Assembly (NCBI GenBank): GCA_963781935.1
Contig: CAWAHX010000006.1
Coordinates: forward strand, 4,481 to 68,480
Origin: an uncultured Solirubrobacteraceae bacterium
GTDB lineage: Bacteria; Actinomycetota; Thermoleophilia; Solirubrobacterales; Solirubrobacteraceae
Length of the DNA stretch: 64,000 bases
Direction of reading: 5' to 3'
Both the position numbers and the translations under genes were made by a program. How positions within the stretch are numbered: position 1 is the first letter of the stretch; each line of letters begins with the position of its first letter. The notes under the pieces are model-generated. The model searched no databases. It was not told the DNA's origin and saw only the letters and a program-made list of their open reading frames with translations. Positions 32,735 through 53,796 of this stretch are shown piece by piece.

Positions 32735-33899
32735 GTGCGCGTCTGCCTGGCCTACGACTGCCTCTACCCGTGGACGGTGGGCGGCGCCGAGCGCTGGTAT
32801 CGCAGCCTCGCCGAGCGGCTCGTGCGGGAGGGCCACGAGGTCACGTACCTCACGCGCCGCCAATGGGACGCGGGCGACGAGCCGCAGATCCCCGGGGTGC
32901 GGGTGGTCGTGGTGTCGCGCTCCGACGAGCTCTACGGGCCGGACGGCAACCGCCGCGTCGGCCCGCCGGTGCGGTTCGGATGGGGCGTCCTGCGTCACCT
33001 GCTGCGCCACGGCCGCCGCTACGACGCGGTGCATCTGTGCTCGTTCCCGTACTTCTCGGTCCTCGCCGCCGCCGCCGCGCGGCCGCTCGGGCGCTACCGG
33101 CTGGTGGTCGACTGGTTCGAGGTCTGGAGCGCCGGCTACTGGCGGGAGTACCTGGGCCCGGTCGGCGGCCGCATCGGCCGTGCCGTCCAGCTTCTGTGCG
33201 CCCGCGTTCCCCAGCAGGCCATCTGCTTCTCACGCCTGTTCGCGGCCCGGCTTCAGGCGGAGGGTCTGCGGCGGCCGCCGCAGATCGTCGGCGGGTTGTA
33301 CGGCGGCGACCTGACCGCGCCCGAGCCGCATGCCGCTGAGCCGCTCGTCCTCTTCGCCGGCCGCCAGATCGCGGAGAAGCGCGCGCCGGCCGTGGTGGCC
33401 GCGATCGCTCGCGCGCGAGCCCGTGGCCTCGATGTCCGTGGGCTGATCCTCGGCGACGGCCCCGAGCACGCGCTCGTCAAGGCGGAGATCGCCGCTCACG
33501 ACCTCGAGGGGGTCGTCAGCGCCCCCGGGTTCGTCGACCACGACAAGCTCGAGCAGGCGATGCGCGATGCGCTGTGCCTGTTGCATCCGTCGACCCGCGA
33601 GGGCTACGGCCTCGTCGTGATCGAGGCCACGGCGCACGGGACGCCGGTCATCGTGGTCGCCGGTGAGGACAACGCGGCGGTCGAGCTCATCGAGCCTGGC
33701 GTGAACGGCCTGGTCTGCGCGTCGGCGGACCCGGACGACCTCGCCGACGCCCTCCTGGCTGTCCACCGTGCGGGCCCGGCGCTGCGCGAGAGCACGTGCC
33801 GGTGGTTTGCGGCCAACGCCCCGTCGCCTGTCGATCGAGACGTCGCTCGACCTGGTCGCCGCAACCTATGCGGGCGACCCGCCGACCGCGCGCACGTAG
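32735..33899 (+). CDS. GT4-family glycosyltransferase; one frame break near 33825
   Basis: VRVCLAYDCLYPWTVGGAERW...LVLFAGRQIAEKR...LHPSTREGYGLVVIEATAHGTPVIV (EX7E region). AGGAG lies 8 nt before GTG 32735. The last ~24 codons (SIETSLDLVAATYAG...) are in another frame and end at TAG 33897-33899. Confidence 0.7.
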
Positions 33900-35002
33900 C
33901 TCGCCGCCGTCAGCTCGGCCGTCCGCTCCCAGGTGAACGCGCGCGGCCTGCCGGACGCCTGCCGCTCCGAGCCGCTGCGCGAGCTGCGGGTCCCCCAGGA
34001 CGCGCTCGAGCGCATCACGCAGTCCGGGCGCATCATCCGGATCGACCAGCAGCGCGGCGTCGCCGGCGACCTCCGGAAGCGATGACCGGTTCGACGTCAC
34101 GACCGGGACGCCGCGCGCCATCGCCTCCAGCACCGGAAGGCCGAAGCCCTCGTAGCGGGAGGGCAGCGCGACCACGTCGGCGAGCGCGTAGAGGCCCTCG
34201 AGGTCGGCCGCGTCGAGCCACGCAGGGAAGCACACGCGATCGTGGAGGCCCAGCGCGTCGGCACGGCCACGCAGCTCCTCGTCGTACGCCGTCCGGTATC
34301 CGGGGACCACGAGCGCCGGCCGCTGCTCGGCCGGCATCAGGGCGAGCGCCTCGAGCACGGCCGTGAGGTTCTTGTGGGGTCGCCGCGCCCCGGGGCTGAG
34401 CACCACCCGTCCGGCCGGGATGCCGAGCCGCCTGCGCAGCTCGGCGGCGTCCGTGGCGATCTCGGGCCGCGGCGGCGCGGCGGCCAGCGGGACCACGTCG
34501 ATGCGCTCGCGCGGCACGCCCAGCTCGCCCACCAGGTCGTCCGCGGTGGACGCGGCGTCGACGATCACGCGCCGCGAGCGGCGGGCCGCCGCCGGCACGA
34601 GCACGCGCATCCCGAGCGCACGCAGGCCGAAGTGCGCCTCGGGCACCTTGCAGGTAGTTGAGGTCGTGGATCGTCGTCACGCGCACCTGCCTGCCCGCGC
34701 AGCGGCGCCGTGCTCGCGAGGCTGTGGATCACGTCCGCGCCGACCCGCGTCGCGATCCGCGGGACGTACTGCTGCTCCCCGCGCACCCATTCGATGCGGT
34801 TGCGCGCGCGGACAGGGACGACCTCCATCGGACAGACCTCTCCCCAGGGTCCGTCGCCGGCCTCGGCCGCCTCCCGGTTCACGAGGCAGGTGATGCGCAG
34901 ATCGTCGCGCGCCGCCAGGCGCGGCACGAGCTCGCGAGCGTAGACCTCCATGCCTCCGACCTCGCCGGGAACGAGGTAGACGAGGTTCAGGGCGACGTGC
35001 AT
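33866..35002 (-). pseudogene. GT4-family glycosyltransferase; two frame breaks (~34670, ~33950)
   Basis: MHVALNLVYLVPGEVGGMEVYAREL...ADVIHSLAST, then VTTIHDLNYL...VLSPGARRPHKNL...ALPSRYEGFGLPVLEAMARGVPVVTS, then FTWERTAELTAASYV. It overlaps the convergent GT4 gene by 34 nt. Confidence 0.65.
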
Positions 35003-35035
35003 AGGAAGGTGTGGCGAGGGGGCGACCGGCACGCC

Positions 35036-35041
35036 TAACCT
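35036..35041 (+). promoter_or_regulatory. Candidate -10 box TAACCT, 9 nt before GTG 35051
   Basis: TANNNT in the 48-bp divergent region. Its complement gives TAGGTT for the opposite strand. Confidence 0.35.
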
Positions 35042-35050
35042 ACTACCCGC

Positions 35051-35977
35051 GTGCCGGCCTCCGACCTCGTCTCAATCGGGATACCGACCTACGGCCGAGC
35101 GGACCGCCTCGAGCGCGCTGTGCGCTCGGTCCTGGCCCAGGACCATCGCGAGCTCGAGCTGATCGTCGCCGACGACGCGTCGACGGACGACACGCCGCAG
35201 ACGTGCGCACGCCTCGCGGCCGAGGACTCGCGCGTGCGCGTCGTGCGGCACGAGCGCAACCTCGGCCACGCTCGCAACTTCCGCTGTGTGTTCGAGCTCG
35301 CGACCGGGCCATGGTTCATGTGGCTCTCCGACGACGACTGGATCGATCCGCGCTACGTCTCGCGCTGCCTCGGCGTCCTGCAGACCGACCCGGGGGCCGT
35401 GCTCGTCGGGGGCCGCGCGCGCTACTACGACGGTGAGCGCTTCGTCGCCCAGGAGCGCGCGACGAACCTGCGCAGCCCGCGCGCCGCCGCGCGCGTCGCG
35501 CGCTACTTCGCCCGGGTCGACCTCAACGGCCCGCTCTACGGCATCGCGCGGCACGAGACGCTGCGGCGCGCGCCGTTCGAGGCGGTGATCGGCGGCGACT
35601 GGCTCGTCGTCGGGCAGCTCGCCGCGCTCGGCACCGTGCAGACGCTCGAGGACGTCCACGTGAACCGCTCGGCGACCGGCCTGTCCTCGGATTCGCACGC
35701 GCTCACGAGCGGCGAGTTCGGCCTCACCGGCTTCGATGCGCGTCAGCACCACGTGCTGATCGCGCGCACCGTCGCCGGGCGGATCGTGCGCGGCGAAGGC
35801 ACGTTCGGCGCCATCGGCCGGGCGCCGCTGCGCGCGCTCGTGGCGCTCGTCTCCGCGGGCGCGATCCTCGCCCGCTTCTCGCTGCTGGGGATCGTCCGCC
35901 GCGGGCTCGATCGCTTCGGTCTGCTGCCCGCCGCGCGCCGGCTGATCGCTCCGCTGCGGGCCGCCCGCCACCGCTGA
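35051..35977 (+). CDS. Family-2 glycosyltransferase
   Basis: LVSIGIPTYGRADRLERAVRSVLAQ...LELIVADDASTDDT...FMWLSDDD. Intact 308-aa ORF. Confidence 0.8.
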   Translation: MPASDLVSIGIPTYGRADRLERAVRSVLAQDHRELELIVADDASTDDTPQTCARLAAEDSRVRVVRHERNLGHARNFRCVFELATGPWFMWLSDDDWIDPRYVSRCLGVLQTDPGAVLVGGRARYYDGERFVAQERATNLRSPRAAARVARYFARVDLNGPLYGIARHETLRRAPFEAVIGGDWLVVGQLAALGTVQTLEDVHVNRSATGLSSDSHALTSGEFGLTGFDARQHHVLIARTVAGRIVRGEGTFGAIGRAPLRALVALVSAGAILARFSLLGIVRRGLDRFGLLPAARRLIAPLRAARHR

Positions 35978-35986
35978 GCGCCGGCT

Positions 35987-36757
35987 TCAGGCGCGGCGCA
36001 GGACGAACGTCATCGCCTCGCCGCGCCCGAGCGCCGCACTGATCGGCGACTGCACCTTGTAGACGACGTCCTTGACGCTCGCGGGCCGGCCGATGACGTA
36101 GTTCGTCGTCTCGAAGTCGAGCAGCTCGAGGCCGAGCGGCTCGATCGCGTGCAGGAACGACTCGCGGGTGAACTGCCAGTAGTGCTCGTGCGGATGCAGC
36201 GAGACCCAGTGCTCGCGCCGCAGCCGCGCCATCCAGGAGCCGAAGTTCGGCACGCCGACGACGAGCAGCCCGCCCGGCCTCAGCCGCTCGGCGCCGTAGC
36301 GCAGGTCGCCGACCGGATCGAGCAGGTGCTCGACGACGTGGTTGAACACGACGACGTCGTACTGCGCGGTCGCGGGAACGGCGAAGACGTCTCCGGCCAG
36401 CACGTCGAGCCCGAACTCGTCGCGTGCGTGACGCGCCGCGTCCGGCGAGATCTCGACGCCGGCGACGGTCCACCCGCGCTGCTCGGCGGCGGTGAGCAGC
36501 AGTCCGCTGCCGGTCCCGACGTCGAGCAGACGGCCCGGCGGCGTGTGGCGCTCGATCAGGTCGAGCAGGTCGTTGAAGACCGCGAGGAACTCGTCACGCC
36601 GCTCGTAGTAGCTCTGCGTCGCCGTGAAGTAGTCGAAGGAGTACTCCGGGGGCTCAGCGATCTCGATGCGGACCTGCCCGCACGGGCAGCGGACGACCGG
36701 GGCCCCGGCCGCCGTGAAGAGCACGTCGGCCTGCTCGCTCCCGCAGATGCACTTCAC
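35987..36757 (-). CDS. Class I SAM-dependent methyltransferase with N-terminal Cys-rich motif
   Basis: VKCICGSEQ...VRCPCGQ (zinc-ribbon-like), then RLLDVGTGSGLLLTAAEQRGW...VVVFNHVVEHLLDP...LRPGGLLVVGVP. GTG 36757 overlaps the upstream stop (GTGA). Confidence 0.75.
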   Translation of the reverse strand: MKCICGSEQADVLFTAAGAPVVRCPCGQVRIEIAEPPEYSFDYFTATQSYYERRDEFLAVFNDLLDLIERHTPPGRLLDVGTGSGLLLTAAEQRGWTVAGVEISPDAARHARDEFGLDVLAGDVFAVPATAQYDVVVFNHVVEHLLDPVGDLRYGAERLRPGGLLVVGVPNFGSWMARLRREHWVSLHPHEHYWQFTRESFLHAIEPLGLELLDFETTNYVIGRPASVKDVVYKVQSPISAALGRGEAMTFVLRRA

Positions 36758-37602
36758 CTTCCGGCTCCGCTGCCGGGTCGCTCGAGCTCGGCCTCGAGCT
36801 CCGCGTAGCGCTCGCGCACGGCATCGCCCTGCTGAAGCTCCCACAGCATCGCCTGCGCGGAGAACAGCGCGAACGGCTGGAAGATCGCCTCGATGATCCC
36901 GGGCATCCCGTCGCGGAACCCGGTGCGCCGGACCATCCGCCGGCCGAAGTCGAGCGCCATGACCTTCGTGAACGTCCATGCGGTCACCGGCGGCGCCCCG
37001 GCGGCGTGGAGGGCGGCGGCCTGGAGCTGCCCATAGCGGATCGCCTTGACGAGGTTCTCCTGCATCGAGCGGTGCGAGAAATGCCAGCGCTCGGCCCGCA
37101 GCTCGGCGATCCGGTCCGCCGGAACGTCGAGCTGCTCGTGGACGCTGCCGTGGTAGCGGGCGTGGTCGCGGCGGACGATCTTGACGTGGGTCTCGACCCA
37201 CCCGCCGTGCTCCATCCGCACGCCCCAGAAGAAGTTCACGGTCGGTGAGCGGTACGCGAGGATCCGGCCCTCGTCGCGGGCGAGCGCCTGCTGGAGCTCG
37301 GCGGCGAGCGCCGGCGTCACACGCTCGTCGCCGTCGCAGTAGACGATCCAGTCGCCGGTCGCCGCATCGACGCCCGCATTCTTCAGCTGCGCGTAGTCCT
37401 CGAACGGCACCACGAGCACTTTGTCGGTGTACCGCCGCGCGACCTCGGCGGTCCCATCCTCGGTGCGGTCGTCGACCACGACGACGATCTCGTCGCAGAA
37501 CGCCAGCAGGCGCAGCGCACCGTCGAGCATCGCCGCCTCGTCGCGCACCGCCAGCACCGCCGAGATCGTCGAGCGCCGTGGCTCGGAGGGAGTCTCAGAC
37601 AC
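36754..37602 (-). CDS. Family-2 glycosyltransferase
   Basis: TISAVLAVRDEAAMLDGAL...EIVVVVDDRTEDGT...VYCDGDERV...HFSHRSMQENLVKAIRYG. Intact ORF. Confidence 0.8.
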   Translation of the reverse strand: MSETPSEPRRSTISAVLAVRDEAAMLDGALRLLAFCDEIVVVVDDRTEDGTAEVARRYTDKVLVVPFEDYAQLKNAGVDAATGDWIVYCDGDERVTPALAAELQQALARDEGRILAYRSPTVNFFWGVRMEHGGWVETHVKIVRRDHARYHGSVHEQLDVPADRIAELRAERWHFSHRSMQENLVKAIRYGQLQAAALHAAGAPPVTAWTFTKVMALDFGRRMVRRTGFRDGMPGIIEAIFQPFALFSAQAMLWELQQGDAVRERYAELEAELERPGSGAGR

Positions 37603-37612
37603 CGGCCGGAGT

Positions 37613-39118
37613 CTAGGCGCGCCGACGGGCGAGCATGCCGCCGAGCCGGCTGCGGACGGCGTGCGTCATCTCCGGCGGCACGAGCCGCAAGGCGAGCACC
37701 AGGCCGATGTAGACGGCGGCGGCCAGGACCGCGAGGACGATGTCCGGCACCCCCGGAACAGCTGCGACAGCCGCGGCCGGGACCGCCGCGAGCGCCGTCA
37801 GCCCGAGTTGGCGGAACGGCAGGTCGCGCCCGGGGCCGGCCCTCCAGAGGGCGACGAACGCGGCGAGCGCGTACGCGAGGTCTCCGGCGACGGCGGCGAA
37901 CGCGGCGCCCTTCGCCTGATGCAGCGGGATCAGGATCAGGCCCGCGACGAGCAGGGTCAGGAGCCCGGTGCCGACGGCGATCGCCAGGTCCCGCGCGCGA
38001 CCGAGGCCGATCAACGTCGGGATCCAGGCGGCGACGAGGAAGATCGTCACCGCCGCGAGGCACTGGATCTGCAGCACCGGCACGGCCGGCTCGTACTCCG
38101 GGCCGCCGAGCACGAGCACGATCGGCTTGGCCGCGATCGCCAGCGTGAGCGCGAGCAGCACACCACCGATGGCCATCACCTCCGTCGTGCGCCCGGTCAT
38201 GTACCGCAGGCGCTCCAGGTCGTCGCGGGCGGCGACGCTGAGCACCGGGAGGACGACGGAGATCAGCAGGAACGGCAGACCGGCGAGGATCTCCACGACA
38301 CGCGTCGACGTCACGAAGTAGCCGACCTGGTCGGCGTTCCCGGAGACGACGGACATCAGGATCACCAGCAGGCGGATGTAGAGGATCCCGAGGACGCTCG
38401 CCAGCGCCACCGGCAGGCCGACCGTGGCGAGCGCCCGCAGGCGCTCGCGCCCCCAGCGGGGCGCCACGAAGTGGTGACGGGCGAGCAGCAGCGGCGTCAC
38501 CGCGATCAGCACGACACCCACGAGCACCGAGGCGCCGAAGAACGGCAGCAGCCCCGCGCCGGCCACGGCGAGCACCACGAACGCGAGGAACAGCACGGCC
38601 TGCCGCAGGACCTCGTTGGCCGCGATCGTCCCGTTGCGCAGCTCGACGCTCAGCGGCAGCAGCATGGCCGCCTGGACGCTGGCGAGGAAGATCCCGATGC
38701 CCGCGATCAGCGTTCCCAGCACGAGCTGATGGTCGTATCCCGCGACGACGGCGAAGACGACCGCGACGACGACCCCGATCCCCGTGAGCACGATCCTCAG
38801 CCCCAGGATGTGCGAGAGCAGCTCGCGCCGCGCCGCGGCGTCGTCGAGCAGGGCGAGCTCCCGCGACCCGGTCAGGCTCAGCCCGGCATCGCTGATCCCG
38901 TACACGATGCTGACCAGCGCGAGAACCGTGCCGTAGCGGCCGAAGTTCGCGACGCCGAGGTAGCGCAGCAGGATGATCGCGCCGGCCGCGGTGAGCACGT
39001 TCGCGATGACGAAGCCGGCGACGCGCTGGGCGCCGCCGCGGACCACGCGCCCGCCGACCTGGTCGTCGGCGAGGACATCAGGTGGGCGGAGCCCAGCGTC
39101 AGCTCCTGCGTCGGCCAC
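37613..39118 (-). CDS. wzx: Polysaccharide/oligosaccharide flippase (MOP superfamily, Wzx-like)
   Basis: Intact 501-aa ORF with about 12-14 TM spans. The N-terminus RVVRGGAQRVAGFVIANVLTAAGAIILLRYLGVANFGRYG is typical of polysaccharide biosynthesis (PST) flippases. TACGCT lies 6 nt before GTG 39118. Confidence 0.7.
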   Translation of the reverse strand: MADAGADAGLRPPDVLADDQVGGRVVRGGAQRVAGFVIANVLTAAGAIILLRYLGVANFGRYGTVLALVSIVYGISDAGLSLTGSRELALLDDAAARRELLSHILGLRIVLTGIGVVVAVVFAVVAGYDHQLVLGTLIAGIGIFLASVQAAMLLPLSVELRNGTIAANEVLRQAVLFLAFVVLAVAGAGLLPFFGASVLVGVVLIAVTPLLLARHHFVAPRWGRERLRALATVGLPVALASVLGILYIRLLVILMSVVSGNADQVGYFVTSTRVVEILAGLPFLLISVVLPVLSVAARDDLERLRYMTGRTTEVMAIGGVLLALTLAIAAKPIVLVLGGPEYEPAVPVLQIQCLAAVTIFLVAAWIPTLIGLGRARDLAIAVGTGLLTLLVAGLILIPLHQAKGAAFAAVAGDLAYALAAFVALWRAGPGRDLPFRQLGLTALAAVPAAAVAAVPGVPDIVLAVLAAAVYIGLVLALRLVPPEMTHAVRSRLGGMLARRRA

Positions 39119-39154
39119 GGCCTGAGCGTACCCCCGACGCAGGAGCGCCGGGCG

Positions 39155-39934
39155 CTACGTGCCCGACCCGACGGTGACGGCGTAGTTCCCGCTGCCCTTC
39201 GGCTCGAGCAGGCGCTGGGGCCCGAGACCGCCGAGGAACGCATCGGGGTCGACGCCCTGCCGACGCAGCTCGGGCTCGTGGACCTCGAGCACGAGCGTCC
39301 GGACGCGCCGCGCGACGTCGCTGCCCCCCAGCGCCGCGGCCTCGCCACCCTCGATGTCCACCTTCATGACGTTCGGCTCGAAGCCGAGCCGCTCGCAGAC
39401 CCCGTCGAGCGTCGCCATCTCGACCTCCACCTCGCCGTCGCTGGCGATGTGCCCCACGGAATCGCCGCTGGCGGCGAAGCGCACGGTGCCCTCATGGTCG
39501 CCCAGGGCGATGGGGAGCACGGTGACGTTCGTGGCCCCGTTGGCCTCGATGTTGCGCTGCAGCAGGCTCCGGGCCCGCGCGTCGGGCTCGAAGGCGACGA
39601 CCCGCCCGTCCGGCCCGACCCGGCGGGACGCGAGGAGGGTGTAGGGCCCGACGAAGGCACCGACGTCGAAGAACACGTCACCCGGCCGAAGCGCCCCGGT
39701 GAGCTCCTCGACCATCGGCCGCTCCCACGTCCCGCGGTGTGCCGCGTGCGCCCACCAGACCAGCTCGGGCCGGTCGGCCTCGGCGAAGACGAACGTCTCC
39801 GGCCCGATGGGCAGCGAGGCACTGCCCCTGAGCTTCCAGAGCGGCCAGGGCCACCGGTGAAGGTGCGCCCAGCCGACTGCGAACTGCAGCCCGCGGCGTA
39901 CGCGATGCCCCCTGGACTCTGCGGGTGAGTTCAC
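39155..39934 (-). CDS. FkbM-family methyltransferase
   Basis: VFFDVGAFVGPYTLLASRRV...VVAFEPDARARSLLQRNIEANG...VMKVDIEGGEAAAL. Confidence 0.75.
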   Translation of the reverse strand: MNSPAESRGHRVRRGLQFAVGWAHLHRWPWPLWKLRGSASLPIGPETFVFAEADRPELVWWAHAAHRGTWERPMVEELTGALRPGDVFFDVGAFVGPYTLLASRRVGPDGRVVAFEPDARARSLLQRNIEANGATNVTVLPIALGDHEGTVRFAASGDSVGHIASDGEVEVEMATLDGVCERLGFEPNVMKVDIEGGEAAALGGSDVARRVRTLVLEVHEPELRRQGVDPDAFLGGLGPQRLLEPKGSGNYAVTVGSGT

Positions 39935-39942
39935 GGCGGAGC

Positions 39943-39948
39943 ACTCTA
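39943..39948 (-). promoter_or_regulatory. Candidate -10 box TAGAGT, 8 nt before GTG 39934
   Basis: The 37-bp divergent intergenic region holds two back-to-back TANNNT boxes. There is no room for a 5'UTR or SD. Confidence 0.45.
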
Positions 39949-39956
39949 ACGAGCGC

Positions 39957-39962
39957 TAGCCT
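39957..39962 (+). promoter_or_regulatory. Candidate -10 box TAGCCT, 9 nt before the gmd ATG 39972
   Basis: The same CTAGCCT-N8/9-ATG arrangement recurs at 2324, 44789 and 50979. Confidence 0.45.
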
Positions 39963-39971
39963 GTCGCCGCG

Positions 39972-41985
39972 ATGCCCAAGACCGCACTCATCACCGGGAT
40001 CACCGGCCAGGACGGCTCATACCTCGCCGAGCTGCTGCTCGAACAGGGGTACGACGTCCATGGCATGGTCCGCCGCTCGTCGACCGAGAAGTTCGACCGG
40101 GTCGAGCACATCCGCGACCGCATCACGCTGCACCAGGGCGACCTGCTCGACCAGCGCTCGCTGGTCGACACACTGCGTGCCAGCAAGCCGGACGAGATCT
40201 ACAACCTCGCCGCGATGAGCTACGTCGCCGCGTCATGGGTCCAGCCGACGCTGACCGCGGAGTTCACCGGCGTGGGCGTCACGCGGATCCTCGAGGCGAT
40301 GCGCGAGGTCTGCCCCGAGGCCCGCTTCTACCAGGCGTCCTCGAGCGAGATGTTCGGCAAGGTGCTCGAGATCCCGCAGACCGAGAACACGCCGTTCTAC
40401 CCCCGCTCGCCGTACGGCGTCGCCAAGGCCTACGGGCATTTCATCACGGTGAATTACCGTGAGTCATACAATTTGCACGCGACGTCCGGAATTTTGTTCA
40501 ATCACGAGTGCGTGCGTTCCACGACGCCCCTGCTGGTGCGCGAGCGCGGGACGGTCTCCGTCAGGACCGCCGCGGACCTTGCGCCGTACAGGCCCAAGGG
40601 CCCCAGCACCCAGTCGTTCGAGCTGCCGAACCTGACCGAGGTCTGGGACGGCGCAGACTGGACGCCGATCACGGCGGTCACGGCCACCCGCCGTCGCAGC
40701 ACGGACCCAGACCACCGCCTGCTCGCGGTGGAGACCCGGGCGGGCGTCGTCGAGGTCACGTCGCATCACCACATGCTCGATGCCGACCACGAGCAGGTCG
40801 TCGCCGGCGACGTCGCGGAAGGTGACCGGCTCGCCATCTGGGGTGAGGGCCCGTTCCTCGAGGACGCGACCCCTGACATCGCGCCGTGGACCGCAGTCAC
40901 CCCACAGCTCGCGGAGCTGCTCGGGTTGCTCGCGGCCGATGGGCACGTCGGGACCGACGGACGCCACGTCCAGTTCACGAACAACGACGAGACGCTGCGA
41001 CTGCGGGTATCCGAGCTGTGGTCCCGCTGCTTCCTGGGCAGCTCACGTGGCTGGAGCGGCCAGTCGGGGTTCAGTGACGCGGCGGTCGGCCAGCTTGGCC
41101 TGACCGGAGCGCCGGGGGCCGCGCCGTGGCTGCGAGACCAGCTCTACACGAAGCGCAGCCTGAAACAGGTTCCGCCGATCGTGCTCAATGCGGACCCGGT
41201 GGCCCACGAGGCGTTCCTCGCCGGCTATTACGCGGGCGATGGCCTCAAGCGGGGGAAGGGAGCGTCGATCAAGACCAACAGCCCCGTCCTGGCGCTCGGC
41301 CTCACGTGGCTCTATGCGCTGCGTGGCCAACAGGCCACCGTGTACGCCGAGCATCGCGACAACCGGACGTACTACCAGCTGAACCTCGCATCCTTGGATC
41401 GGGTCGGCGCAAAGGGTCAGCACCTGCGCAAGGATCCCGCCGAGGTGCGCCGCATCATCGAGCTCGAGGCCACCGTTGACGACGACTTCGTGTTCGACAT
41501 CGCGACGGAGAGCGGCGTGTTCGCGGCCGGTGTCGGGCGCGTGATCGTCCACAACTCGCCCCGCCGCGGGCTGGAATTCGTGACACGCAAGATCACCTGG
41601 CACGCCGCGGCGATCAAGCTCGGCAAGCGCGAGCGAGCTCGGGCTGGGCAACCTCGACGCCGAGCGCGACTGGGGCTACGCGAAGGACTACGTCGAGGCG
41701 ATGTGGCTGATGCTCCAGCAGGACGCGGCCGAGGACTACGTGATCGCCACGAACAACACGAACTCCGTGCGCGAGTGCGTCGAGATCGCGTTCGACGAGG
41801 CGGGGCTCGGGAGCTGGGAGCCCTACGTGGACCTCGACCCGAGCATGGTCAGGCCGGCCGAGGTCGACCAGCTGATCGGGGACTACTCCAAGGCGAAGGC
41901 CGACCTCGGGTGGGAGCCGAAGACCACCTTCGAGGAGCTCATCCGCCTGATGACGCGGGCGGACCTCGAACTGCTCTCACGATGA
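39972..41985 (+). CDS. gmd: GDP-mannose 4,6-dehydratase interrupted by an intein; the C-extein also carries a 1-nt frame break near 41634
   Basis: N-extein 39972..40508: [16 protein letters not shown]...ASSSEMFG...[10 protein letters not shown]...GILFNHE. C-extein 41556..41985: [14 protein letters not shown]...AIKLGK, then in the other frame [29 protein letters not shown]...[23 protein letters not shown]. The rest of track ORF 39972..42725 is read-through in a wrong frame. Confidence 0.85.
40509..41555 (+). mobile_element. Class-1 intein (349 aa) with LAGLIDADG homing-endonuclease domain
   Basis: Cys1 in [10 protein letters not shown] (block A), [12 protein letters not shown] (block B), [15 protein letters not shown] and [13 protein letters not shown] (dodecapeptide motifs), and [23 protein letters not shown] followed by Ser+1 (blocks F/G). 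It is in frame with the N-extein. Confidence 0.85.
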
Positions 41986-42725
41986 ACGAGCGCGCGTGGA
42001 CGAATGAGGCGGCCGACGTCGCCGGAGGCAATCAGGGCCGCATCCACGGCAGCGACATCAACCTGCGCTCGCGCCCGCAGATGGCCGAGTACGAGGCGGC
42101 CGCCGACCGCATCGCCCGCGCCGGGCACCGCAAGGTGCTCGACTGGGGTTGCGGCTACGGGCAGCTGACGCGGATGCTGCGCGATCGCGGCGTGGACGTG
42201 ACGTCGATCGACTGGGACCCGGAGGTCGACGGCGTCGTCACGCGGCCGCTGCCGGCCTTCCCCGGGCTCGATGCACTGGCCACGAGCGACCCGGTGCTGC
42301 TGCCGTTCGAGGACGCGAGCTTCGACGCGGTGCTCTCGATGGGCGTGCTCGAGCACGTGCACGACCCGGGCGCGAGCCTCGACGAGCTGCGACGCGTCCT
42401 CGTGCCCGGTGGGACGGTCTACTGCTACAAGCTGCCGAACGAGCACTCCTACCTCGAGGCGATCGCCCGCCGCAGCGGCATGTACCACCACGGGCAGCTC
42501 GAGAACGACCGGCTCTACACGGTGGCGAGCGCCCGGGAGCTCTTCGAGCGTCACGGCTTCGAGGTTCTCGACGTGCGCCGAGCGAACATGCTGCCGCTGA
42601 CGCTGCCGGGCCGCGCGGCGACCGCCGCCGCACCGCTGATCTGGGGCGCGAACCGCGCGCTCGCCGCCGTCCCCGGCCTCAACGGGGTCGCCACGAACGT
42701 GCAGATCGTCGCCCGCACGCGCTGA
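41982..42725 (+). CDS. Class I SAM-dependent methyltransferase
   Basis: ATG 41982 overlaps the gmd stop (ATGA). [23 protein letters not shown]...[16 protein letters not shown]...[10 protein letters not shown]. Confidence 0.75.
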
Positions 42726-42740
42726 CCCGGGCCATCGCCC

Positions 42741-43499
42741 TCAGTGGGCGAGGAAGTTCCAGATCGGCTCGCTGAACACCGCCTCGAACTGCGTGCGCGT
42801 GTACGGACCGACGCCGGCCAGGTCGAAGATCCGCAGCGCACAGTCGCCCACGAGCAGGTCGTGGAGCTCGCCGGGGGTGCCCCCGTAGTGCTCGATGCCA
42901 CCCTGCCCGTGCTCGAAGACCACGAGCGGGCGGTGCCGGGCGAGCGTCTCGCGGGCGCCGCGGAAGACCTCGAGCTCGGCGCCTTCGACGTCCACCTTCA
43001 CGAACGCCGGAGCCAGCCCGGCCGGCAGGGCGTCGTCAAGGCGCTCGGTGCGCACGCCGATCTCTCGCACCTCCTCCTCGCCGGGCAGGTCGCGCAGGCG
43101 CAGGCCGCTGTAGCCGGGGGACGACACCACGTGCTGGAAGGTCGTCTCGCCCGCCTCGTTCGCGAGCGCCGCACACCGCAGCTCCACGCCGCCGATCCCT
43201 CCGAACTCACGCTCCAGCCCTGCGAACAGGTCTGGAAGCGGCTCGTAGGCGAGGTGGCGACCGCCGGGCGAGAGACGCACGATCTCGCGCAGGAGCTCAC
43301 CGGTGTGCGCCCCGACCTCCACGGTGTCGGAGTCGGGACGCAGCCGTGCGGCCACGAGCAGCTTCATCGCCGCGTGATCGCGCAGGTCACGGCGCAACCC
43401 CGCGTCGGTGAGCGCGTGAAGACGCTTGACGTGCTCCTCCACGCCGAAGCGCTCGGCGGTGGTCATGATGGCGCGGCGCGCGCGGGCGGTGGACGGCAT
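42741..43499 (-). CDS. FkbM-family methyltransferase
   Basis: VEVGAHTGELLREIVRLSP...LAYEPLPDLFAGLEREF...FVKVDVEGAELEVFRGA. Confidence 0.75.
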   Translation of the reverse strand: MPSTARARRAIMTTAERFGVEEHVKRLHALTDAGLRRDLRDHAAMKLLVAARLRPDSDTVEVGAHTGELLREIVRLSPGGRHLAYEPLPDLFAGLEREFGGIGGVELRCAALANEAGETTFQHVVSSPGYSGLRLRDLPGEEEVREIGVRTERLDDALPAGLAPAFVKVDVEGAELEVFRGARETLARHRPLVVFEHGQGGIEHYGGTPGELHDLLVGDCALRIFDLAGVGPYTRTQFEAVFSEPIWNFLAH

Positions 43500-43508
43500 C
43501 CCCGCAGC

Positions 43509-44729
43509 CTAGATGCGCAGCCAGCGTTCGAGGCTGGCGTGCATCACCCGGGCCATGGCGGACCAGTCGTACCGGGCCAGCACCCGCTCGCGGCCACTGG
43601 CCGCGAGGCGCTCCGCCAGCTCGCGATCCTCCAGGAGCCGCACCACCGCTCGGGCGAACTCGTCCGGGTCGCCGGCGACGAGCAGGTCCGTCCCCGGGCG
43701 AACGTCGATCCCGGCGGCCGCCAGCGGGGTCGCGACGAGCGGACGGCCGGCGGCGAGCGCCTCGACGACCTTGAGGTTCGTGCCGCTGCCCGAGCGGATC
43801 GGGGCGATCGACACGGCCGTCCCGGAAAGCCGCGGTCGCAGGTCGTCGACCCAGCCGAGGACCTCGATGGCGGGGTCCTCGGCCAGACGCGCGACGGCCG
43901 GCGGGGCGCCGCGACCGACGACCGAGAGGCGGACGTCCGGGCGGCGAGCGCACACCAGCGGCAGCACCTCGCGCACGAACCAGCTCACCGCCTCGGCGTT
44001 CGGGGGGTAGGACATCGTCCCGGTGAACAGCAGGGTGTCCGGCTCGCCGCCGGCGATCGGCAGATCGCCGAAGTGTGCGCCGTCCACACCGTTCGGCACG
44101 ACGTCGACCGGGAGCCCGGGCAGCATCGCGGCGATCTCGTCGCGCTCGGGGTCGGACATCGCCCAGCCGTGCGAGTAGCGCGGGGCGTGCCGGTGCACCA
44201 GGCGCTGGAAGCGGCGCTCCTCGGCCGCCAGGCGAGCGGCGGTGAGGCCGCGCGCCCCGGCCCGGCGGTTGCGGTAGTAGGTCCACTGGGTGTTCTGGAA
44301 CACGAGCCCGGCCGGAAGCCGGGGCGGGAGCCGCCCGGCCCAGGCCATCGCGAAGTCGTGCTCGACGATCACGCCGTCCAGGCCCCCGCGGTCGAGCACG
44401 TCGGCGACCGTTCCGGCGATCTCCCCCCAGAACACCTCGGCCTGCCAGCTGAGCCATGGAAGCCGTGCGGCGGCCAGCGTCAGCCCGGGGCGCCGCAGGA
44501 CCGCACGCGCCGCCTCGCTGACGTGACCGTCGGGCCGGCGCACGAGCCGCAGCGTGACGCCGTCGTCAAGCAGGCCGGCGGCGCGCTGCGCCTGATCGTC
44601 GTGGGCGGGCGCGACCACGGTGAGCTCGACCCCCAGCCGGGCCAGACCCGCCACCTGCTGATGAAGACGCATGCCACCGCCCGTCCCACCCGGATCGGGC
44701 GCCTCAGGCGTCAGCCAGAGCAGTCTCAT
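43509..44729 (-). CDS. GT4-family glycosyltransferase
   Basis: MRLLWLTPEAPDPGGTGGGMRLH...LLFTGTMSYPPNAEAV...GSGTNLKVVEALAAGRPLVAT. Intact 406-aa ORF. Confidence 0.8.
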   Translation of the reverse strand: MRLLWLTPEAPDPGGTGGGMRLHQQVAGLARLGVELTVVAPAHDDQAQRAAGLLDDGVTLRLVRRPDGHVSEAARAVLRRPGLTLAAARLPWLSWQAEVFWGEIAGTVADVLDRGGLDGVIVEHDFAMAWAGRLPPRLPAGLVFQNTQWTYYRNRRAGARGLTAARLAAEERRFQRLVHRHAPRYSHGWAMSDPERDEIAAMLPGLPVDVVPNGVDGAHFGDLPIAGGEPDTLLFTGTMSYPPNAEAVSWFVREVLPLVCARRPDVRLSVVGRGAPPAVARLAEDPAIEVLGWVDDLRPRLSGTAVSIAPIRSGSGTNLKVVEALAAGRPLVATPLAAAGIDVRPGTDLLVAGDPDEFARAVVRLLEDRELAERLAASGRERVLARYDWSAMARVMHASLERWLRI

Positions 44730-44788
44730 CCGCCGGGCACGTCGGGCACCGGCCGCACTCTAGATCGAAGTCGCGCCACGTGGCGGGC

Positions 44789-44794
44789 TAGCCT
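44789..44794 (+). promoter_or_regulatory. Candidate -10 box TAGCCT, 9 nt before ATG 44804
   Basis: GGCTAGCCT-N9-ATG, with no SD. The opposite strand carries TAGAGT at 44761-44766. Confidence 0.4.
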
Positions 44795-44803
44795 CTGCCG
44801 CGC

Positions 44804-45889
44804 ATGCCCGTCCCGCTCTTCGACACGCGCACGCCGCTGCTCCCACTGCGCGCCGAGCTCGACGCCGCCATCGCCCGCGTCATCGACTCGGGCATGTTCA
44901 TCCTCGGCCCCGAGGTCGCGGCCTTCGAGCAGGAGTTCGCCGCCTACTGCGGCGTCCCACACGCCGTCGGCGTGGCGAACGGCACCGAGGCGCTGACGAT
45001 CGCGCTGCGCGCGCTCGGGGTCGGGCCCGGCGACGAGGTGATCGTCCCGTCGTTCACGTTCTACGCGACCGCCGAGGCGGTGCCGCCGACCGGCGCGCGC
45101 CCGGTGTTCTGCGACGTCGATCCCGACACGATGTGCGTGACCGCCGACACCGTGCGCGCAGCGCTGACGCCGCGCACGAAGGCGGTCGTCGCGGTCCACC
45201 TGTTCGGGAACATCGCTCCGATCGCGCGAGATCGCGGCGCTCGGCCTGCCCGTGATCGAGGATGCGGCTCAAGGCGCGGGCAGCACCAGCACGGCCGGCC
45301 GCCCCGGGCTCGCTGGGGACGATCGCCACCTTCAGCTTCTTCCCGTCGAAGAACCTCGGCGCGTTCGGCGACGGCGGGGCGATCACCACGAGCGACGGCG
45401 ACCTCGCCGACCGCGTGCGGATGCTGCGCTTCCACGGCTCGTGGGACAAGGTCACCTACGAGCACGTGGGCTACAACTCGCGCCTGGACGAGCTGCAGGC
45501 GGCGATCCTGCGCGTCCAGCTCCCCCACCTCGACGCATGGGCGGACGGACGCCGTGCCGCCGGCCGTCACTACGAGCAGGCGGGCCTCGGCGACCTGGTC
45601 GACCTCCCCGTGCCGGCGCCCGGCTCGCAGCCCGCCTGGCATCTCTACGTCGTGCGCAGCCGGCGCGCCGACGCGCTCGCCGACGCGCCTCAAAGCCGCC
45701 GGGCACGGCGCGAAGGCCTACTACCGCACGCCGGTGCACCGCCAGCCCGCGATGCTCGAGTACGCCGCCGGGGCGGAGCTGCCCGTCACCGACGAGCTCG
45801 CCCGCACGCACCTGGCGATTCCGATGAGCCCCGTGCTCAGCGCGCAGATGGCCGGCGAGGTCGTCGCCGCCGCCCGCACCGCCGGGTAG
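44804..45889 (+). pseudogene. DegT/DnrJ/EryC1/StrS-family PLP sugar aminotransferase; three frame breaks (~45228, ~45308, ~45690)
   Basis: FILGPEVAAFEQEFAAYCGVPHAVGVANGTEALTIAL...VIVPSFTFYATAEAV, then IAALGLPVIEDAAQ, then SLGTIATFSFFPSKNLGAFGDGGAITT (catalytic Lys), then AKAYYRTPVHRQPAM...LAIPMSPVL. Each break can be repaired by removing a single C. Confidence 0.7.
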
Positions 45890-45940
45890 CACGAAGGGGC
45901 GGTTGCCCGCCCTTTCCACCTCCAATGTATATCCGACAGG

Positions 45941-45959
45941 GGGGCTTGAAACAAGCCCC
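45941..45959. promoter_or_regulatory. Perfect 8-bp-arm palindrome GGGGCTTG-AAA-CAAGCCCC, resembling the rifamycin-associated element (RAE)
   Basis: It lies 60 nt upstream of the Rox-like monooxygenase ATG, in the only clearly A+T-richer intergenic stretch of the window. CATAAT (45971-45976) follows, and AGGAG precedes the ATG. Confidence 0.5.
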
Positions 45960-46018
45960 GGGTCGTGCCGCATAATCGCCCGCCGCATCCCAGAACCCAC
46001 GGAAAAGGCAGGAGCGAC

Positions 46019-47522
46019 ATGACGACCGAGCATGCGGTGGTGATCGCCGGAGGCGGTCCGGCGGGGATGATGCTGGCGGCTGAGCTGGCGTTGGCGAAGG
46101 TCGACGTCGCGGTCGTCGAGCGGCGTCCCGATCACGTGCTCGTCGGCTCACGCGCCGGCGGCTTTCACTCGCGCACGATCGAGGTGCTCGATCAGCGTGG
46201 GGTCGCTGATCGGTTCCTCGCAGAGGGTCAGGTGGCTCAGGTCGCGACGTTCGCCACCACCGCGCTGGACATGAGCGATTTCCCGACACGTCATCCGTAT
46301 TCGCTCGGGATCTGGCAGAACCAGATCGAGCGGATCATGGCCGCCTGGATCGCCGAGCTGCCGGTGCAGATCCGTTACGGGACCGAGGTGACGGGCTTCG
46401 CGCAGGACGACAGCGGCGTCGACGTCCACCTGTCAGACGGTCGCTCGCTGCGGACGCACTACCTCGTCGGATGCGACGGAGGACGCAGCGCCATCCGCAA
46501 GGCCGCCGGCATCGAGTTCCCCGGGTGGGATCCGACGACCAGCAACCTGATCGCCGAGGTCGAGATGACCGAGGAGCCGGAGCTGGGCATCCGCCGCGAT
46601 GACAAGGGCATACACGGACTCGGCAGACTGGGATACGAGATCCGCGACGGCGAGGTGGTCTACATGGACGGCGGGCCTGTGCGGGTCATGGTCACCGAAC
46701 GGCACCTCGGACCTGCCGGCGAGCCCACCCTGCGCGATCTGAGCGAGGCACTCATCGACGTGTACGGCACCGACTTCGGAGTCCACGATCCGACGTGGAT
46801 CTCGAGGTTCACCGACATGACCCGTCAGGCGGCCACCTACCGCGCGGGACGAGTCCTGCTCGCCGGCGACTCGGCGCACGTGCAGTACCCGGCGGGTGGA
46901 CAGGGCCTCGGCCTCGGTGTGCAGGATGCGGTGAATCTGGGATGGAAACTGGCCCAGGTGGTCAACAGCGACCTCCCCGGCGAGCCTTCTGGACACCTAC
47001 CAGGACGAGCGCCACCCGGTTACCGCCCGCGCGCTGCGGCACACCATGGCTCAGGCCGTGCTCCAGCGCCCCGACGAGCGCATCCAGGCGCTGGCCGCTG
47101 TCATTTCGGAGCTGGCGATCATGGACGAGCCTCGCAAAAGGCTCGCCGGGATCATCTCCGGGCTGGACATTCGGTACGACCTCGGCGAGGGACATCCGCT
47201 GCTCGGACGCCGGATGCCCGATCTGGACCTCGTGACCGCCGACGGCCCGCTGCGGGTGTTCACCCTGCTGCACGATGCCCGGCCGGTGCTGCTGAACTTC
47301 GGTGAGCCCGGCGGCTTCGACATCGCGCCGTGGGCGGACCGGGTTCCGTTGATCGATGCCGACTACGCCGGTGAGTGGGAGCTCCCGGTACTTGGCGCGG
47401 TCACCGCTCCCACCGCCGTGCTGGTCCGGCCCGACGGATACGTCGCGTGGGTGGGAGACCTGGGCGACGAGGTGCTGCCCGTCGCGCTCACCACCTGGTT
47501 CGGACAGCCCTCTGCGGCGTAG
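46019..47522 (+). CDS. Class A FAD-dependent monooxygenase (PheA/TfdB family, Rox/rifampicin-monooxygenase-like); one frame break near 46963
   Basis: HAVVIAGGGPAGMMLAAELALA (GxGxxG), YLVGCDGGRSAIRK, VLLAGDSAHVQYPAGGQGLGLGVQDAVNLGWKLA. It continues in the frame of ORF 47046..47522: LLDTYQDERHPV...IRYDLGEGHPLLGRRMPD...AVLVRPDGYVAWVG. Confidence 0.7.
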
Positions 47523-47540
47523 GCGTAGCGTGCCGCTGAC

Positions 47541-48371
47541 ATGGAGCGCGCCTTCCCCAGACCCGCCGCCGCCGACGCGGCGGGAGTGACCGAGCTCGTC
47601 GCGGCACTCGAGTCCCTGCTCTACGGACAGAGCACGTTTTCGCAGGCCGATCTGGAGGACGAGTGGTCGGACCTCGACCTCGAGCAGAACGCAGTCGTCG
47701 TCCGCGACGGCGACCGGATCGTCGCCTACGGCGCGGTGCGCGAGGCAGGCGAGCTGTGTCAGGCCGAGGGGTATGTCCACCCCGACGCACACGGGCAAGG
47801 AATCGGGAGGCTGATCGCGACCGGGCTCGAGGAGGACGCGGTCCGCCGCGGCGCGCGCAGGGTCCACAACCGCGTCTACGAGACCGACACCGCCGCCCGC
47901 AGGCTGCTCGCATCGCTCGGCTATGGCGCCGTGCGCGTCTTCCGCGAGATGCGCATCGAGCTCGAGGCGCCGCCGCCCGCACCCGCGTGGCCGGACGGGC
48001 TGCGCGTCGTCCCCTTCGACCCGCAGCATGATGCGCTCGAGTTCCACGCCGCGCACCAGGAGGCGTTCGCGGACCACTGGGAGTACGCGCCACGCGACTT
48101 CGAGTCGTGGTCGAACTGGTACCTGGGGAGCGAGCGCTTCGACCGGACGCTCTGGTGTGTCGTCCGCGCCGGGGACGAGATCGTCGCCGGGACGATCTGT
48201 ACGGGCGACACATACGGCGGCGGTTTCGTCCACGTGCTCTTCACGCGCCGCCCGTGGCGCAACCAGGGTGTCGGCGCGGCGCTCCTCGGCGACTCGTTCG
48301 GGCGCTTCTGGGAGCGCGGCGAGCACAGCGTCGGGCTCGGCGTCGACGCGGCGAGCGACACCCCCGCCTAG
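47541..48371 (+). CDS. GNAT-family N-acetyltransferase (two GNAT-like halves)
   Basis: VHPDAHGQGIGRLIATGL and FTRRPWRNQGVGAALLG are acetyl-CoA binding Q/RxxGxG/A motifs. TAGCGT lies 9 nt before the ATG. Confidence 0.75.
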   Translation: MERAFPRPAAADAAGVTELVAALESLLYGQSTFSQADLEDEWSDLDLEQNAVVVRDGDRIVAYGAVREAGELCQAEGYVHPDAHGQGIGRLIATGLEEDAVRRGARRVHNRVYETDTAARRLLASLGYGAVRVFREMRIELEAPPPAPAWPDGLRVVPFDPQHDALEFHAAHQEAFADHWEYAPRDFESWSNWYLGSERFDRTLWCVVRAGDEIVAGTICTGDTYGGGFVHVLFTRRPWRNQGVGAALLGDSFGRFWERGEHSVGLGVDAASDTPA

Positions 48372-49078: not shown

Positions 49079-49081
49079 CGT

Positions 49082-50059
49082 TCAGGTCCCCTCTGTCGCG
49101 GCCAGCTCGGCCAGGTCGAGCTGCACCATCTCGCCGATCATCGCCTCGAAGGAGATCGCGGCGTCCCACCCGAGCACGCGCCGCGCCAGCGACGGGTCGC
49201 CGACGAGCGGCACCGGCTCGCGCGGCCGCACGAACTCCGGATCGACGCGCACGTGCCGCTCGACGCCGCCCGTCACGCCGGCGGCGGCGAATGCCGTCTC
49301 GACGAGGTCGCGGACCGTGTGGCCGATGCCGCTGGCCAGCACGTAGTCGCCGGGCGCGTCGGCCTGCAGCGCGAGGTGCGCGCCGGCGACGATGTCGCGC
49401 GCGTCGGACCAGTCGCGCACCGCGTCGAGATCGCCGAGGACGAGCTCGTCCTGGAGCCCGAGGGCGATCGCGGCCGCGCCGCGCGTGACCTTGCGGGGCA
49501 GGAAGTGCGGCGGACGGCGAGGCGACTCGTGGTTGAACGTGATGCCCGAGCAGGCGAACAGGCCGTGGCGCTCGCGCAGCGTCCGCACGAGGCCGTGGGC
49601 GGCGAGCTTCGCGACGCCGTACGGCGTGCGCGGGCGCATCGGCGATCCCTCGTTCTGCGGACTCGTGACGGCGTCCCCGAACAGCTCGCTCGACGTCGAC
49701 ACCCAGACGCGCGGACGCTCGTCCAGCGCCAGCGCGGCGGCGAGCACGGTCGCTGTGCCGCCCGCGATCGCGGCGACCGTCTCGGTCGGGTCATCCCATG
49801 AGTCCGGCACGAACGTCGGCGCGGCCAGGTGATAGAGCTCGTCCGGGCGGGCGTCGGCGATGCTGCCGCGCAGCGAGTCGGGCTCGCGCAGGTCCACGGC
49901 GACGAACGCCACCTGGTCCCGGATCGCCGCGATGTTCGGCGCCTGATCGGTCCCGGCACGGTCGAGCCCCGTCACCTCATAGCCCGCGGCAAGCAGGCGC
50001 TCCGCGAGATATGACCCGTCCTGCCCCGCGATTCCGGTGATGAGCGCGCGTCGTGGCAT
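49082..50059 (-). CDS. GDP-mannose 4,6-dehydratase family, second divergent paralogue (intein-free)
   Basis: [73 protein letters not shown]. Intact 325-aa ORF. TAGGCT lies 9 nt before ATG 50059. Confidence 0.8.
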   Translation of the reverse strand: MPRRALITGIAGQDGSYLAERLLAAGYEVTGLDRAGTDQAPNIAAIRDQVAFVAVDLREPDSLRGSIADARPDELYHLAAPTFVPDSWDDPTETVAAIAGGTATVLAAALALDERPRVWVSTSSELFGDAVTSPQNEGSPMRPRTPYGVAKLAAHGLVRTLRERHGLFACSGITFNHESPRRPPHFLPRKVTRGAAAIALGLQDELVLGDLDAVRDWSDARDIVAGAHLALQADAPGDYVLASGIGHTVRDLVETAFAAAGVTGGVERHVRVDPEFVRPREPVPLVGDPSLARRVLGWDAAISFEAMIGEMVQLDLAELAATEGT

Positions 50060-50068
50060 CGGCGCCGG

Positions 50069-50074
50069 AGCCTA
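50069..50074 (-). promoter_or_regulatory. Candidate -10 box TAGGCT, 9 nt before ATG 50059
   Basis: TANNNT in the divergent intergenic region 50060..50149, with no SD. Confidence 0.4.
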
Positions 50075-50149
50075 CCCGGGCCCACCCTCACGACCGCGAC
50101 TTCTTCGGTTCTCCTGCGTTTCTGCTGCCATAGTTCGTAGGACCTCCCC

Positions 50150-50981: not shown

Positions 50982-50993
50982 CCTGAGACCCGT

Positions 50994-52262: not shown

Positions 52263-52295
52263 CAGGTCTTGCCCGGCGCTACCCTCCGCAGCGCC

Positions 52296-53642: not shown

Positions 53643-53667
53643 CCAACGTCGTCCCACCACCAGCCAG

Positions 53668-53779: not shown

Positions 53780-53796
53780 CGACGTCCCGCCACCCC

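Follow-up and report, generated by a model that had tools for sequence, protein, structure and literature searches.

A probable class-1 intein carrying a LAGLIDADG endonuclease interrupts the active-site loop of GDP-mannose 4,6-dehydratase in an uncultured Solirubrobacteraceae bacterium

The window analyzed here is a stretch of 64,000 nucleotides from an uncultured Solirubrobacteraceae bacterium (Actinomycetota, Thermoleophilia; contig CAWAHX010000006.1, positions 4,481 to 68,480 of the forward strand). Within it, an open reading frame (ORF) of 917 residues is present on the + strand at 39972..42725, which starts as a GDP-mannose 4,6-dehydratase (GMD) and after 179 residues enters an insert of 349 codons. 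This insert is very probably a class-1 intein of the canonical type that bears a LAGLIDADG endonuclease with two motifs, located in frame between Glu179 and Ser180 of GMD. A preliminary description of the window had proposed that the ORF is not one protein and had named the intein; the ORF indeed consists of a GMD N-extein, the intein, a C-extein that changes the frame and a methyltransferase.

The N-extein (39972..40508, +) comprises codons 1-179 and ends in ...FNHE. It matches positions 1-189 of the 332 positions of the Pfam model GDP_Man_Dehyd (E 1e-83) and aligns to the Pseudomonas aeruginosa GMD structure 1rpn. The C-extein begins directly behind the intein, and its first 80 nucleotides (41556..41635, +) are in frame with it and open with the Ser+1 codon at 41556-41558. 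After 26 in-frame codons an extra A (41636..41636, +; context GAGCG[A]GCTC) shifts the frame, and the remaining C-extein (41637..41985, +) is read in the shifted frame up to the stop codon TGA at 41983-41985, as seen by Pfam, the tblastn frames and a G+C content at third codon positions (GC3) of 0.92. Here, an ORF of 94 residues (41701-41985, in the other frame) matches positions 233-332 of the 332 of GDP_Man_Dehyd (E 7e-24). The extra base was located by a global alignment of the window exteins to an intein-free sister allele on a contig called L083, in which the single gap is an A at 41636 of the window and L083 reads KLGKRERLGLGN.

Downstream, a class I S-adenosylmethionine methyltransferase gene (41982..42725, +; Pfam Methyltransf_11/23/25, NCBIfam) overlaps the GMD stop codon with its start at 41982 (ATGA). 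It is separate from GMD and lies by chance in the same frame as the N-extein, and its methyltransferase domain appears as residues 708-867 of the 917-residue ORF; in L083 the homologous gene of 247 residues stands on its own. A GC3 frame plot shows a single coding frame from 39961 to ~41581, the other frame until 41985 and the first frame again for the methyltransferase. The long ORF is thus chimeric: behind the N-extein and the intein come 26 codons of the C-extein, an out-of-frame read-through of what remains of it and finally the methyltransferase.

The complete intein with its embedded endonuclease occupies 40509..41555 (+), an assignment based on Pfam, a PDB profile search, an AlphaFold model and the empty allele. 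It starts with Cys1 (TGC, 40509..40511, +), the N-terminal splicing nucleophile in block A. Block B follows as TSHH, a TxxH motif at intein residues 84-87 (40758..40769, +), of which H86 and H87 are invariant and T84 is kept in at least 90% of the members of A1, an alignment of 28 members of the GMD intein family. The first LAGLIDADG motif comprises residues 134-148 (40908..40952, +; helix 132-144 in the model) with the catalytic Asp144 at 40938-40940, and the second one residues 236-247 (41214..41249, +; helix 230-243) with the catalytic Asp244 at 41238-41240. Within A1, D244 is invariant, and position 144 is either Asp or Glu. Splicing blocks F-G (41481..41555, +) end in VIVHN (residues 345-349) with His348-Asn349 and align to the C-terminal end of the TliVMA intein structure 7qsu. 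The terminal Asn, residue 528 of the ORF, is encoded by AAC at 41553-41555, and the next codon is the TCG of Ser+1 at 41556-41558.

The hallmarks on which the intein had been proposed (Cys1, TxxH, two LAGLIDADG motifs, VIVHN and Ser+1) are all present, and the boundaries 40509-41555 are exact on the DNA level, since L083 is without precisely these 1047 bp. The endonuclease domain, which had been said to look intact, retains both catalytic Asp residues and scores 44 bits with Pfam LAGLIDADG_3 (cut-off 22.5, E 2.5e-11), a model that matches all 28 members of A1. The frame repair that had been anticipated is needed as well, owing to the extra A at 41636.

The proposed check of the insert against the Hint and LAGLIDADG models of Pfam came out positive only for LAGLIDADG_3. 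Pfam Intein_splicing stays below its threshold (E 0.021, 15 bits, cut-off 35.8) and reaches E <= 0.01 in only four of the 28 members of A1, which weighs against the intein assignment. Because of this, the Hint assignment rests on the PDB profile search and on the predicted structure. Here, the A1 profile found inteins only, with 7qsu at E 5.5e-16 (aligned up to the terminal His-Asn), PI-PkoII at 5e-7 and a TFIIB mini-intein at 0.005. An AlphaFold2 model built on A1 has a mean predicted local distance difference test score (pLDDT) of 90 and a predicted template modeling score (pTM) of 0.90. Foldseek places TliVMA first (5e-21), followed by PhoVMA, PI-PkoII in fourth position, PI-PfuI and PI-SceI, and the middle domain of the model resembles I-SceI and I-DmoI. 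Over both splicing lobes, the predicted structure agrees with crystal structures of inteins, in line with a Hint fold. This indicates a predicted fold of an intein plus an endonuclease.

In-silico removal of the intein together with a correction of the frame yields a protein of 321 residues. With the intein and the extra base removed, the conceptually spliced product reaches 428 bits with the gmd model TIGR01472 of NCBIfam (cut-off 415) and aligns end-to-end to P. aeruginosa GMD 1rpn with E 1.6e-121, where the junction ...FNHE/SPRRG... is gapless; both scores were obtained with a first repair of the frame, and four residues are different in the one based on L083 (...KLGKRERLGLGN). That first reading of the frame at the shift is superseded by the L083 allele with its single extra A at 41636 of the window (KLGKRERLGLGN). 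The spliced product carries the Wierenga motif GxxGxxG at residues 9-15, the catalytic residues S124/E126 (S/T-x-E, 124-126), Y148 and K152 (YxxxK, 148-152) and the NHESPRRG loop, as in GMDs without an intein.

The junction corresponds to E179/S180 of GMD, and R183 (spliced numbering) lies four residues past it. By the numbering offset, this residue corresponds to Arg190 of the Burkholderia enzyme BceN, which is described as fundamental for the orientation of GDP-mannose and NADP+ (PMC3584063). The preliminary description had located the insert in a conserved nucleotide-binding loop; the site is conserved, and it is an active-site loop and not just a nucleotide-binding loop, since its Arg is reported to orient both the substrate and the cofactor. 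As the junction splits this loop close to that Arg, the unspliced precursor should lack GMD activity.

A protein search with the intein gave 239 matches, and the best 120 of these are all GMDs with the insert, at 50-74% identity. Their labels are Conexibacter, Solirubrobacteraceae, Thermoleophilaceae, Trebonia, Chloroflexota and Beggiatoa sp. PS, and the word intein occurs in none of the names. When each GTDB species was represented by one genome, 192 genomes were seen to encode a relative; the best 80 of these 192 belong to the Thermoleophilia or are labeled only to phylum or class (Actinomycetota, Actinomycetes). A query with the repaired precursor gave a full-length match in a single frame in 78 of these 80 loci, and in 79 of 80 a single ORF with an insert runs all the way from FNHE to S(P/E)RRG. 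Since nearly all of these loci carry the insert at the same place in one ORF, the pattern goes beyond chance. Many database proteins have their start at an internal Met or Val codon or within the intein, which might have pointed to widespread decay of the gene, but this can be dismissed because the DNA of the GTDB loci is intact; the shortened proteins are artifacts of gene calling and long-read errors.

The conservation of single positions was counted in 79 loci from these best 80 genomes. Position 1 of the intein is Cys in 65 loci and Ser in 14, whereas the terminal Asn, Ser+1 and Glu-1 are present in all 79. The penultimate residue is His in 56 loci, Ser in 21 and Lys in two. The Asp of the first LAGLIDADG motif was located by its motif pattern in 77 of 79. 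Furthermore, the endonuclease domain is conserved to the same degree (0.72) as the N-terminal splicing lobe (0.72) and close to the C-terminal one (0.76), and many of its residues are invariant or nearly so at an overall identity of ~60%. Synonymous sites are saturated among proteins of 55-75% identity.

Within these loci, a subclade with Ser1 (14 loci, of the L013 type, within L003-L082) always combines this residue with a C-terminal Ser-Asn in place of His-Asn. Cys1 together with Ser-Asn is seen in seven further loci and Lys-Asn in two. The two splice-junction ends of the intein appear to change together.

A different interpretation would be that the insert has been domesticated, does not splice and is kept as a domain of the mature GMD. 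The very wide distribution of the insert, the fact that all naming sources call these proteins plain GMD and the sub-threshold score of the Pfam splicing model would fit to this. The preliminary description had named orthologues with a conserved insert that lacks the splicing residues as the case that would speak for such a domain, and this is not what is found: the orthologues have Cys or Ser at position 1, and both the terminal Asn and Ser+1 are invariant. In addition, such a domain would permanently interrupt the NHE/SPRRG loop four residues before the Arg that orients substrate and cofactor, the predicted fold is that of splicing inteins, and the close relatives without the insert are ordinary proteins of 321 residues. 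A non-splicing domain is therefore highly improbable. Bacterial intein-like (BIL) domains are Hint domains in variable, non-conserved proteins, and they possess neither a +1 nucleophile nor an endonuclease. The highly conserved host site, the invariant Ser+1 and the presence of the endonuclease rule out a BIL domain. A phage origin was also considered and rejected, as one weak partial match was obtained among 50,697 phage records.

Alleles without the insertion are found as well. In a search with the spliced GMD, the best 120 matches are all intein-less proteins of 321 residues, and the top one (P0121, on contig L083) is 98% identical. On the DNA level, L083 is 94.5-98.3% identical to window positions 36720-54450 and has the same gene order: an FkbM methyltransferase, GMD, the methyltransferase with the same ATGA overlap, a further FkbM methyltransferase and a glycosyltransferase, then an acetyltransferase, a GMD-like paralogue, WecG, a dehydrogenase and an epimerase. 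L083 is without exactly the 1047 bp of the intein, shows no target duplication and reads ...AAC CAC GAA/TCT CCC CGT... across the site.

The GMD genes of the window and of L083 differ by 23 substitutions, and eight of these lie within -31 to +15 nucleotides of the site, all eight being synonymous (binomial p 7e-7 against the rest of the gene). Along the 8-kb alignment, 1.3% of all 46-nucleotide stretches reach eight differences, the others lying partly in indel-ridden DegT regions. The N-side flank (40478..40508, +) has four synonymous differences in 31 nucleotides and represents a candidate co-conversion tract or a half-site of the endonuclease target; the C-side flank (41556..41570, +) has four synonymous differences in 15 nucleotides. 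GC3 of GMD is ~1.0 mostly, and drops to 0.57-0.73 in ~35 codons around the site (window ~40435-40510 and 41556-41590; L083 3750-3900). This dip is present in the occupied allele of the window and in the empty allele of L083, with rare codons ending in A or T such as GAA TCT CGT CGT GGA in L083. Among 76 occupied loci, the extein next to the junction has a GC3 of 0.85, equal to that of the intein, versus 0.93 in the remaining exteins, a difference that holds in 67 of the 76; three empty alleles of other species have no such dip (0.97). Pairwise identities of inteins and exteins are almost uncorrelated (Spearman 0.08).

The comparison of L083 and the window points to a recent homing event or a precise loss. 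These sequence data would fit a history in which homing, with short co-conversion tracts, has inserted the intein repeatedly and the intein has now and then been lost, with either gain or loss as a possible direction of the event in this lineage. Several observations speak against too simple a homing scenario. The empty alleles L083 (0.57) and L084 (0.77) also dip in GC3, and for this reason a simple joint transfer of intein and flank is not a full explanation. The low correlation of intein and extein identities may partly reflect saturation and narrow identity ranges. Moreover, the cluster of substitutions and the GC3 dip would also fit to a precise loss in the ancestor of L083 or to a local selection unrelated to homing.

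In another reading, the element splices and the endonuclease is dead, the intein is inherited vertically in the Thermoleophilia and the empty alleles are occasional precise deletions. The activity of the endonuclease is here predicted from its sequence, the best 80 of the 192 genomes all fall into one class, and the low-GC3 patch shared by L083, L084 and the occupied alleles is what would be expected of former hosts. On the other hand, both catalytic Asp and many further residues of the domain have stayed invariant or nearly so at ~60% identity, the domain is as conserved as the splicing domains, intein and extein identities do not follow each other, the same intein is found in GMDs labeled Chloroflexota, Beggiatoa and Trebonia, and the synonymous differences cluster exactly at the site. 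A dead endonuclease thus appears rather unlikely, although it deserves more weight than the other alternatives. To our knowledge, homing of bacterial inteins has rarely been demonstrated directly.

The reading frame of GMD is not uninterrupted in the window as given, due to the extra A at 41636. This frameshift, together with an intein-less GMD-like paralogue 7 kb away, counts against a functional intein-bearing GMD. The gene could accordingly be viewed as a true pseudogene that does contain the extra A, has lost its C-terminal 115 residues and leaves the synthesis of the GDP-sugar to the paralogue at 49082-50071. The frameshift does stand in the sequence, a paralogue of 42-47% identity is nearby, and two other intein-bearing GMDs (L001 and P0093) are frameshifted near the same spot.

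However, the quality of the assembly points in another direction. At least ten other single-base frameshifts are present in unrelated genes of the window (50141-50981; 44792-45975; 45950-47522; ~25355; 33880-35060 with two shifts; ~55180). WecG is split into Pfam positions 1-81 and 83-168 in two frames, DegT has three frameshifts, and FAD_binding_3 and Rng_hyd_C lie in two different frames; as these two domains normally occur in one protein, they are read as one split hydroxylase. Over 8 kb, ~20 single-base indels separate the window from L083, with insertions on either side, which is the pattern of consensus errors; each of the two sequences also has broken genes that are intact in the other. 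Contigs of the same series (ENA ERZ25039470, ERZ25039554 and ERZ25039597) show the same pattern of broken genes. Based on these observations, the frameshift in GMD is taken as a probable consensus error, the assembly having most likely gained a single wrong base, the A at 41636. The window looks like an error-rich, probably long-read assembly, in which long ORFs and gene fusions are untrustworthy; record names of the form contig_NNNNN would fit a long-read assembler.

Three further facts are in conflict with a pseudogene: the shifted C-extein is free of additional lesions and still looks fully coding (GC3 0.92-1.0), 78 of the 80 related loci are intact, and the paralogue scores 262 bits against gmd and thereby stays under the cut-off of 415. 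Loss of the gene is accordingly regarded as unlikely, and the preferred reading remains an intact GMD with an assembly error.

The two other frameshifted genes, L001 (at 7630-7640) and P0093 (in its C-terminus), which come from long contigs, break off only a few codons from the shift of the window, after ...AAIKLG. A programmed frameshift or a hot-spot behind the intein was considered and rejected, since 78 of 80 loci read through, L001 has three frameshifts within 430 nucleotides, neighboring genes are fragmented in L002 and L083, and the window itself has its at least ten other shifts. The shifts of L001 and P0093 are attributed to error-prone assemblies; alternatively, GCGAGCGAGC-like repeats may cause a context-specific basecalling error or a mutational hot-spot.

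An exhaustive profile search extended the family to 3,936 cluster representatives at E <= 1e-3, of which 149 reach E <= 1e-30. The hosts were checked for eight of the 150 profile matches listed, and these are five family B DNA polymerases and three GMDs; family B DNA polymerases (E about 1e-35 to 1e-55) are the only non-GMD hosts among the eight. Two GMDs, P0260 (1087 residues) and P0345 (1043 residues), have two inteins each, one of them at NHE/S. The second one is located directly before the catalytic SSE motif, as YQAS/S...HN/SSEMFG in P0260 and FYNAG/C...GN/SSEEFG in P0345, and hence GMD has at least two insertion sites for inteins. The composition of P0345 is strongly rich in Asn, Ile and Lys, which suggests an AT-rich source unlike the Thermoleophilia.

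Of the known systems, the VMA inteins of the Thermococcales, TliVMA and PhoVMA (PDB 7qsu/7qss/7qst), and PI-SceI of yeast are the best matches in sequence and fold. As in the GMD intein, an endonuclease with two LAGLIDADG motifs interrupts their Hint domain, and they share Cys1, TxxH and the His-Asn at the C-terminus. In contrast, the identity is only 18-23% in structural alignments to three VMA-intein entries, and the host is a bacterial sugar dehydratase of the short-chain dehydrogenase/reductase (SDR) family instead of a subunit of the vacuolar-type ATPase. The GMD intein further has Ser as the +1 residue and a subclade with Ser1 and Ser-Asn, unlike the Cys1 and His-Asn type. Inteins of family B DNA polymerases, e.g., PI-PkoII (PDB 2cw7), are similar as judged from the profile matches and the fourth-ranked fold match, and differ in host and insertion site; these polymerases often contain two to four inteins. 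In GMDs without an intein (1rpn; TIGR01472) the loop is contiguous, whereas in the primary product of the window 349 residues interrupt it.

With respect to the type of host, a comparable case is the intein of the archaeal UDP-glucose/GDP-mannose dehydrogenase (UDP-GlcDH), also a nucleotide-sugar enzyme, for which a survey gives 10 inteins in Euryarchaeota (Novikova et al., 2016; PMC4760082). It differs from the GMD intein in an unrelated host fold, another site and an archaeal distribution. The same survey describes the known bacterial inteins as concentrated in replication, repair and ATPase proteins, and GMD is not among the intein hosts in its main tables (PMC4760082). A full-text literature search for intein combined with GDP-mannose, gmd, Thermoleophilia or nucleotide sugars gave no description of a GMD intein. 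As far as these tables and this search go, GMD is not a classical intein host, which agrees with the preliminary description. New is the host and the site; mechanism and architecture are those of an ordinary class-1 intein with a LAGLIDADG endonuclease.

The established chemistry of class-1 inteins would predict the following course for splicing, endonuclease activity and the direction of events. A precursor of ~670 residues would be translated, in which the active-site loop NHE/SPRRG is split. An N-S acyl shift at Cys1 would produce a thioester that is attacked by Ser+1, and the cyclization of Asn349, aided by His348 and the TxxH histidine, would free the intein. After an O-N shift, the normal GMD of 321 residues would result and supply GDP-4-keto-6-deoxymannose to the surrounding envelope-glycan cluster. 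The freed intein endonuclease would then cut intein-free GMD alleles at the sequence coding for NHE/SPRRG, and repair from the occupied allele would copy in the intein together with a short flanking stretch of the extein.

The window as a whole represents this large envelope-glycan cluster. It encodes glycosyltransferases, a Wzx-type flippase, a Wzy_C-domain protein, several SDR epimerases, a UDP-glucose/GDP-mannose dehydrogenase, WecG, a DegT aminotransferase, a NeuD-type acetyltransferase, FkbM and class I methyltransferases and a sulfotransferase. Judged from known pathways, the succession of GMD, DegT and a NeuD-type acetyltransferase would be compatible with a branch of the GDP-perosamine type. 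The intein-less GMD-like SDR paralogue (49082..50071, -), whose 262 bits with gmd were mentioned above, adjoins a NeuD-type acetyltransferase, and similar paralogues are found beside the intein-bearing GMD in many related loci. It is a candidate for a second dehydratase or for a GDP-4-keto-6-deoxymannose reductase.

Two further differences between the window and L083 were observed. L083 has 23 more bases at 39953, an intergenic position 19 nucleotides 5' of the GMD start that belongs to the divergent promoter region separating the FkbM methyltransferase gene from GMD. In addition, ~2.5 kb of the window (45885-48360) are absent from L083, which represents a second insertion/deletion polymorphism of the glycan cluster. 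This segment carries a gene similar to FAD-dependent aromatic-ring hydroxylases and a GNAT acetyltransferase (47529-48371).

For practical work, the locus is a reminder that one assembly indel together with an intein can falsely fuse two genes into one ORF of 917 residues. There is also a gap in annotation, as the intein is common (192 GTDB species and thousands of metagenome proteins), yet the naming sources state plain GMD. The occupied and empty alleles in surroundings of ~95-98% identity represent a natural pair of substrate and donor for homing tests.

For the biology of the host, a nucleotide-sugar dehydratase is added to the metabolic hosts of inteins. It is a bolder and doubtful idea that the intein is regulatory. 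Conditional splicing, e.g., by a redox-sensitive Cys1 and with the Ser1/Ser-Asn variants tuned differently, might then gate the production of the envelope glycan post-translationally. On the same speculative footing, the intein with its intact endonuclease would be more than a parasite in the at least 192 species of soil Thermoleophilia that keep it in the enzyme for the first committed step of GDP-deoxyhexose synthesis. If this were true, the recoded AT-rich empty sites would testify to a continuing arms race of the endonuclease with its target.

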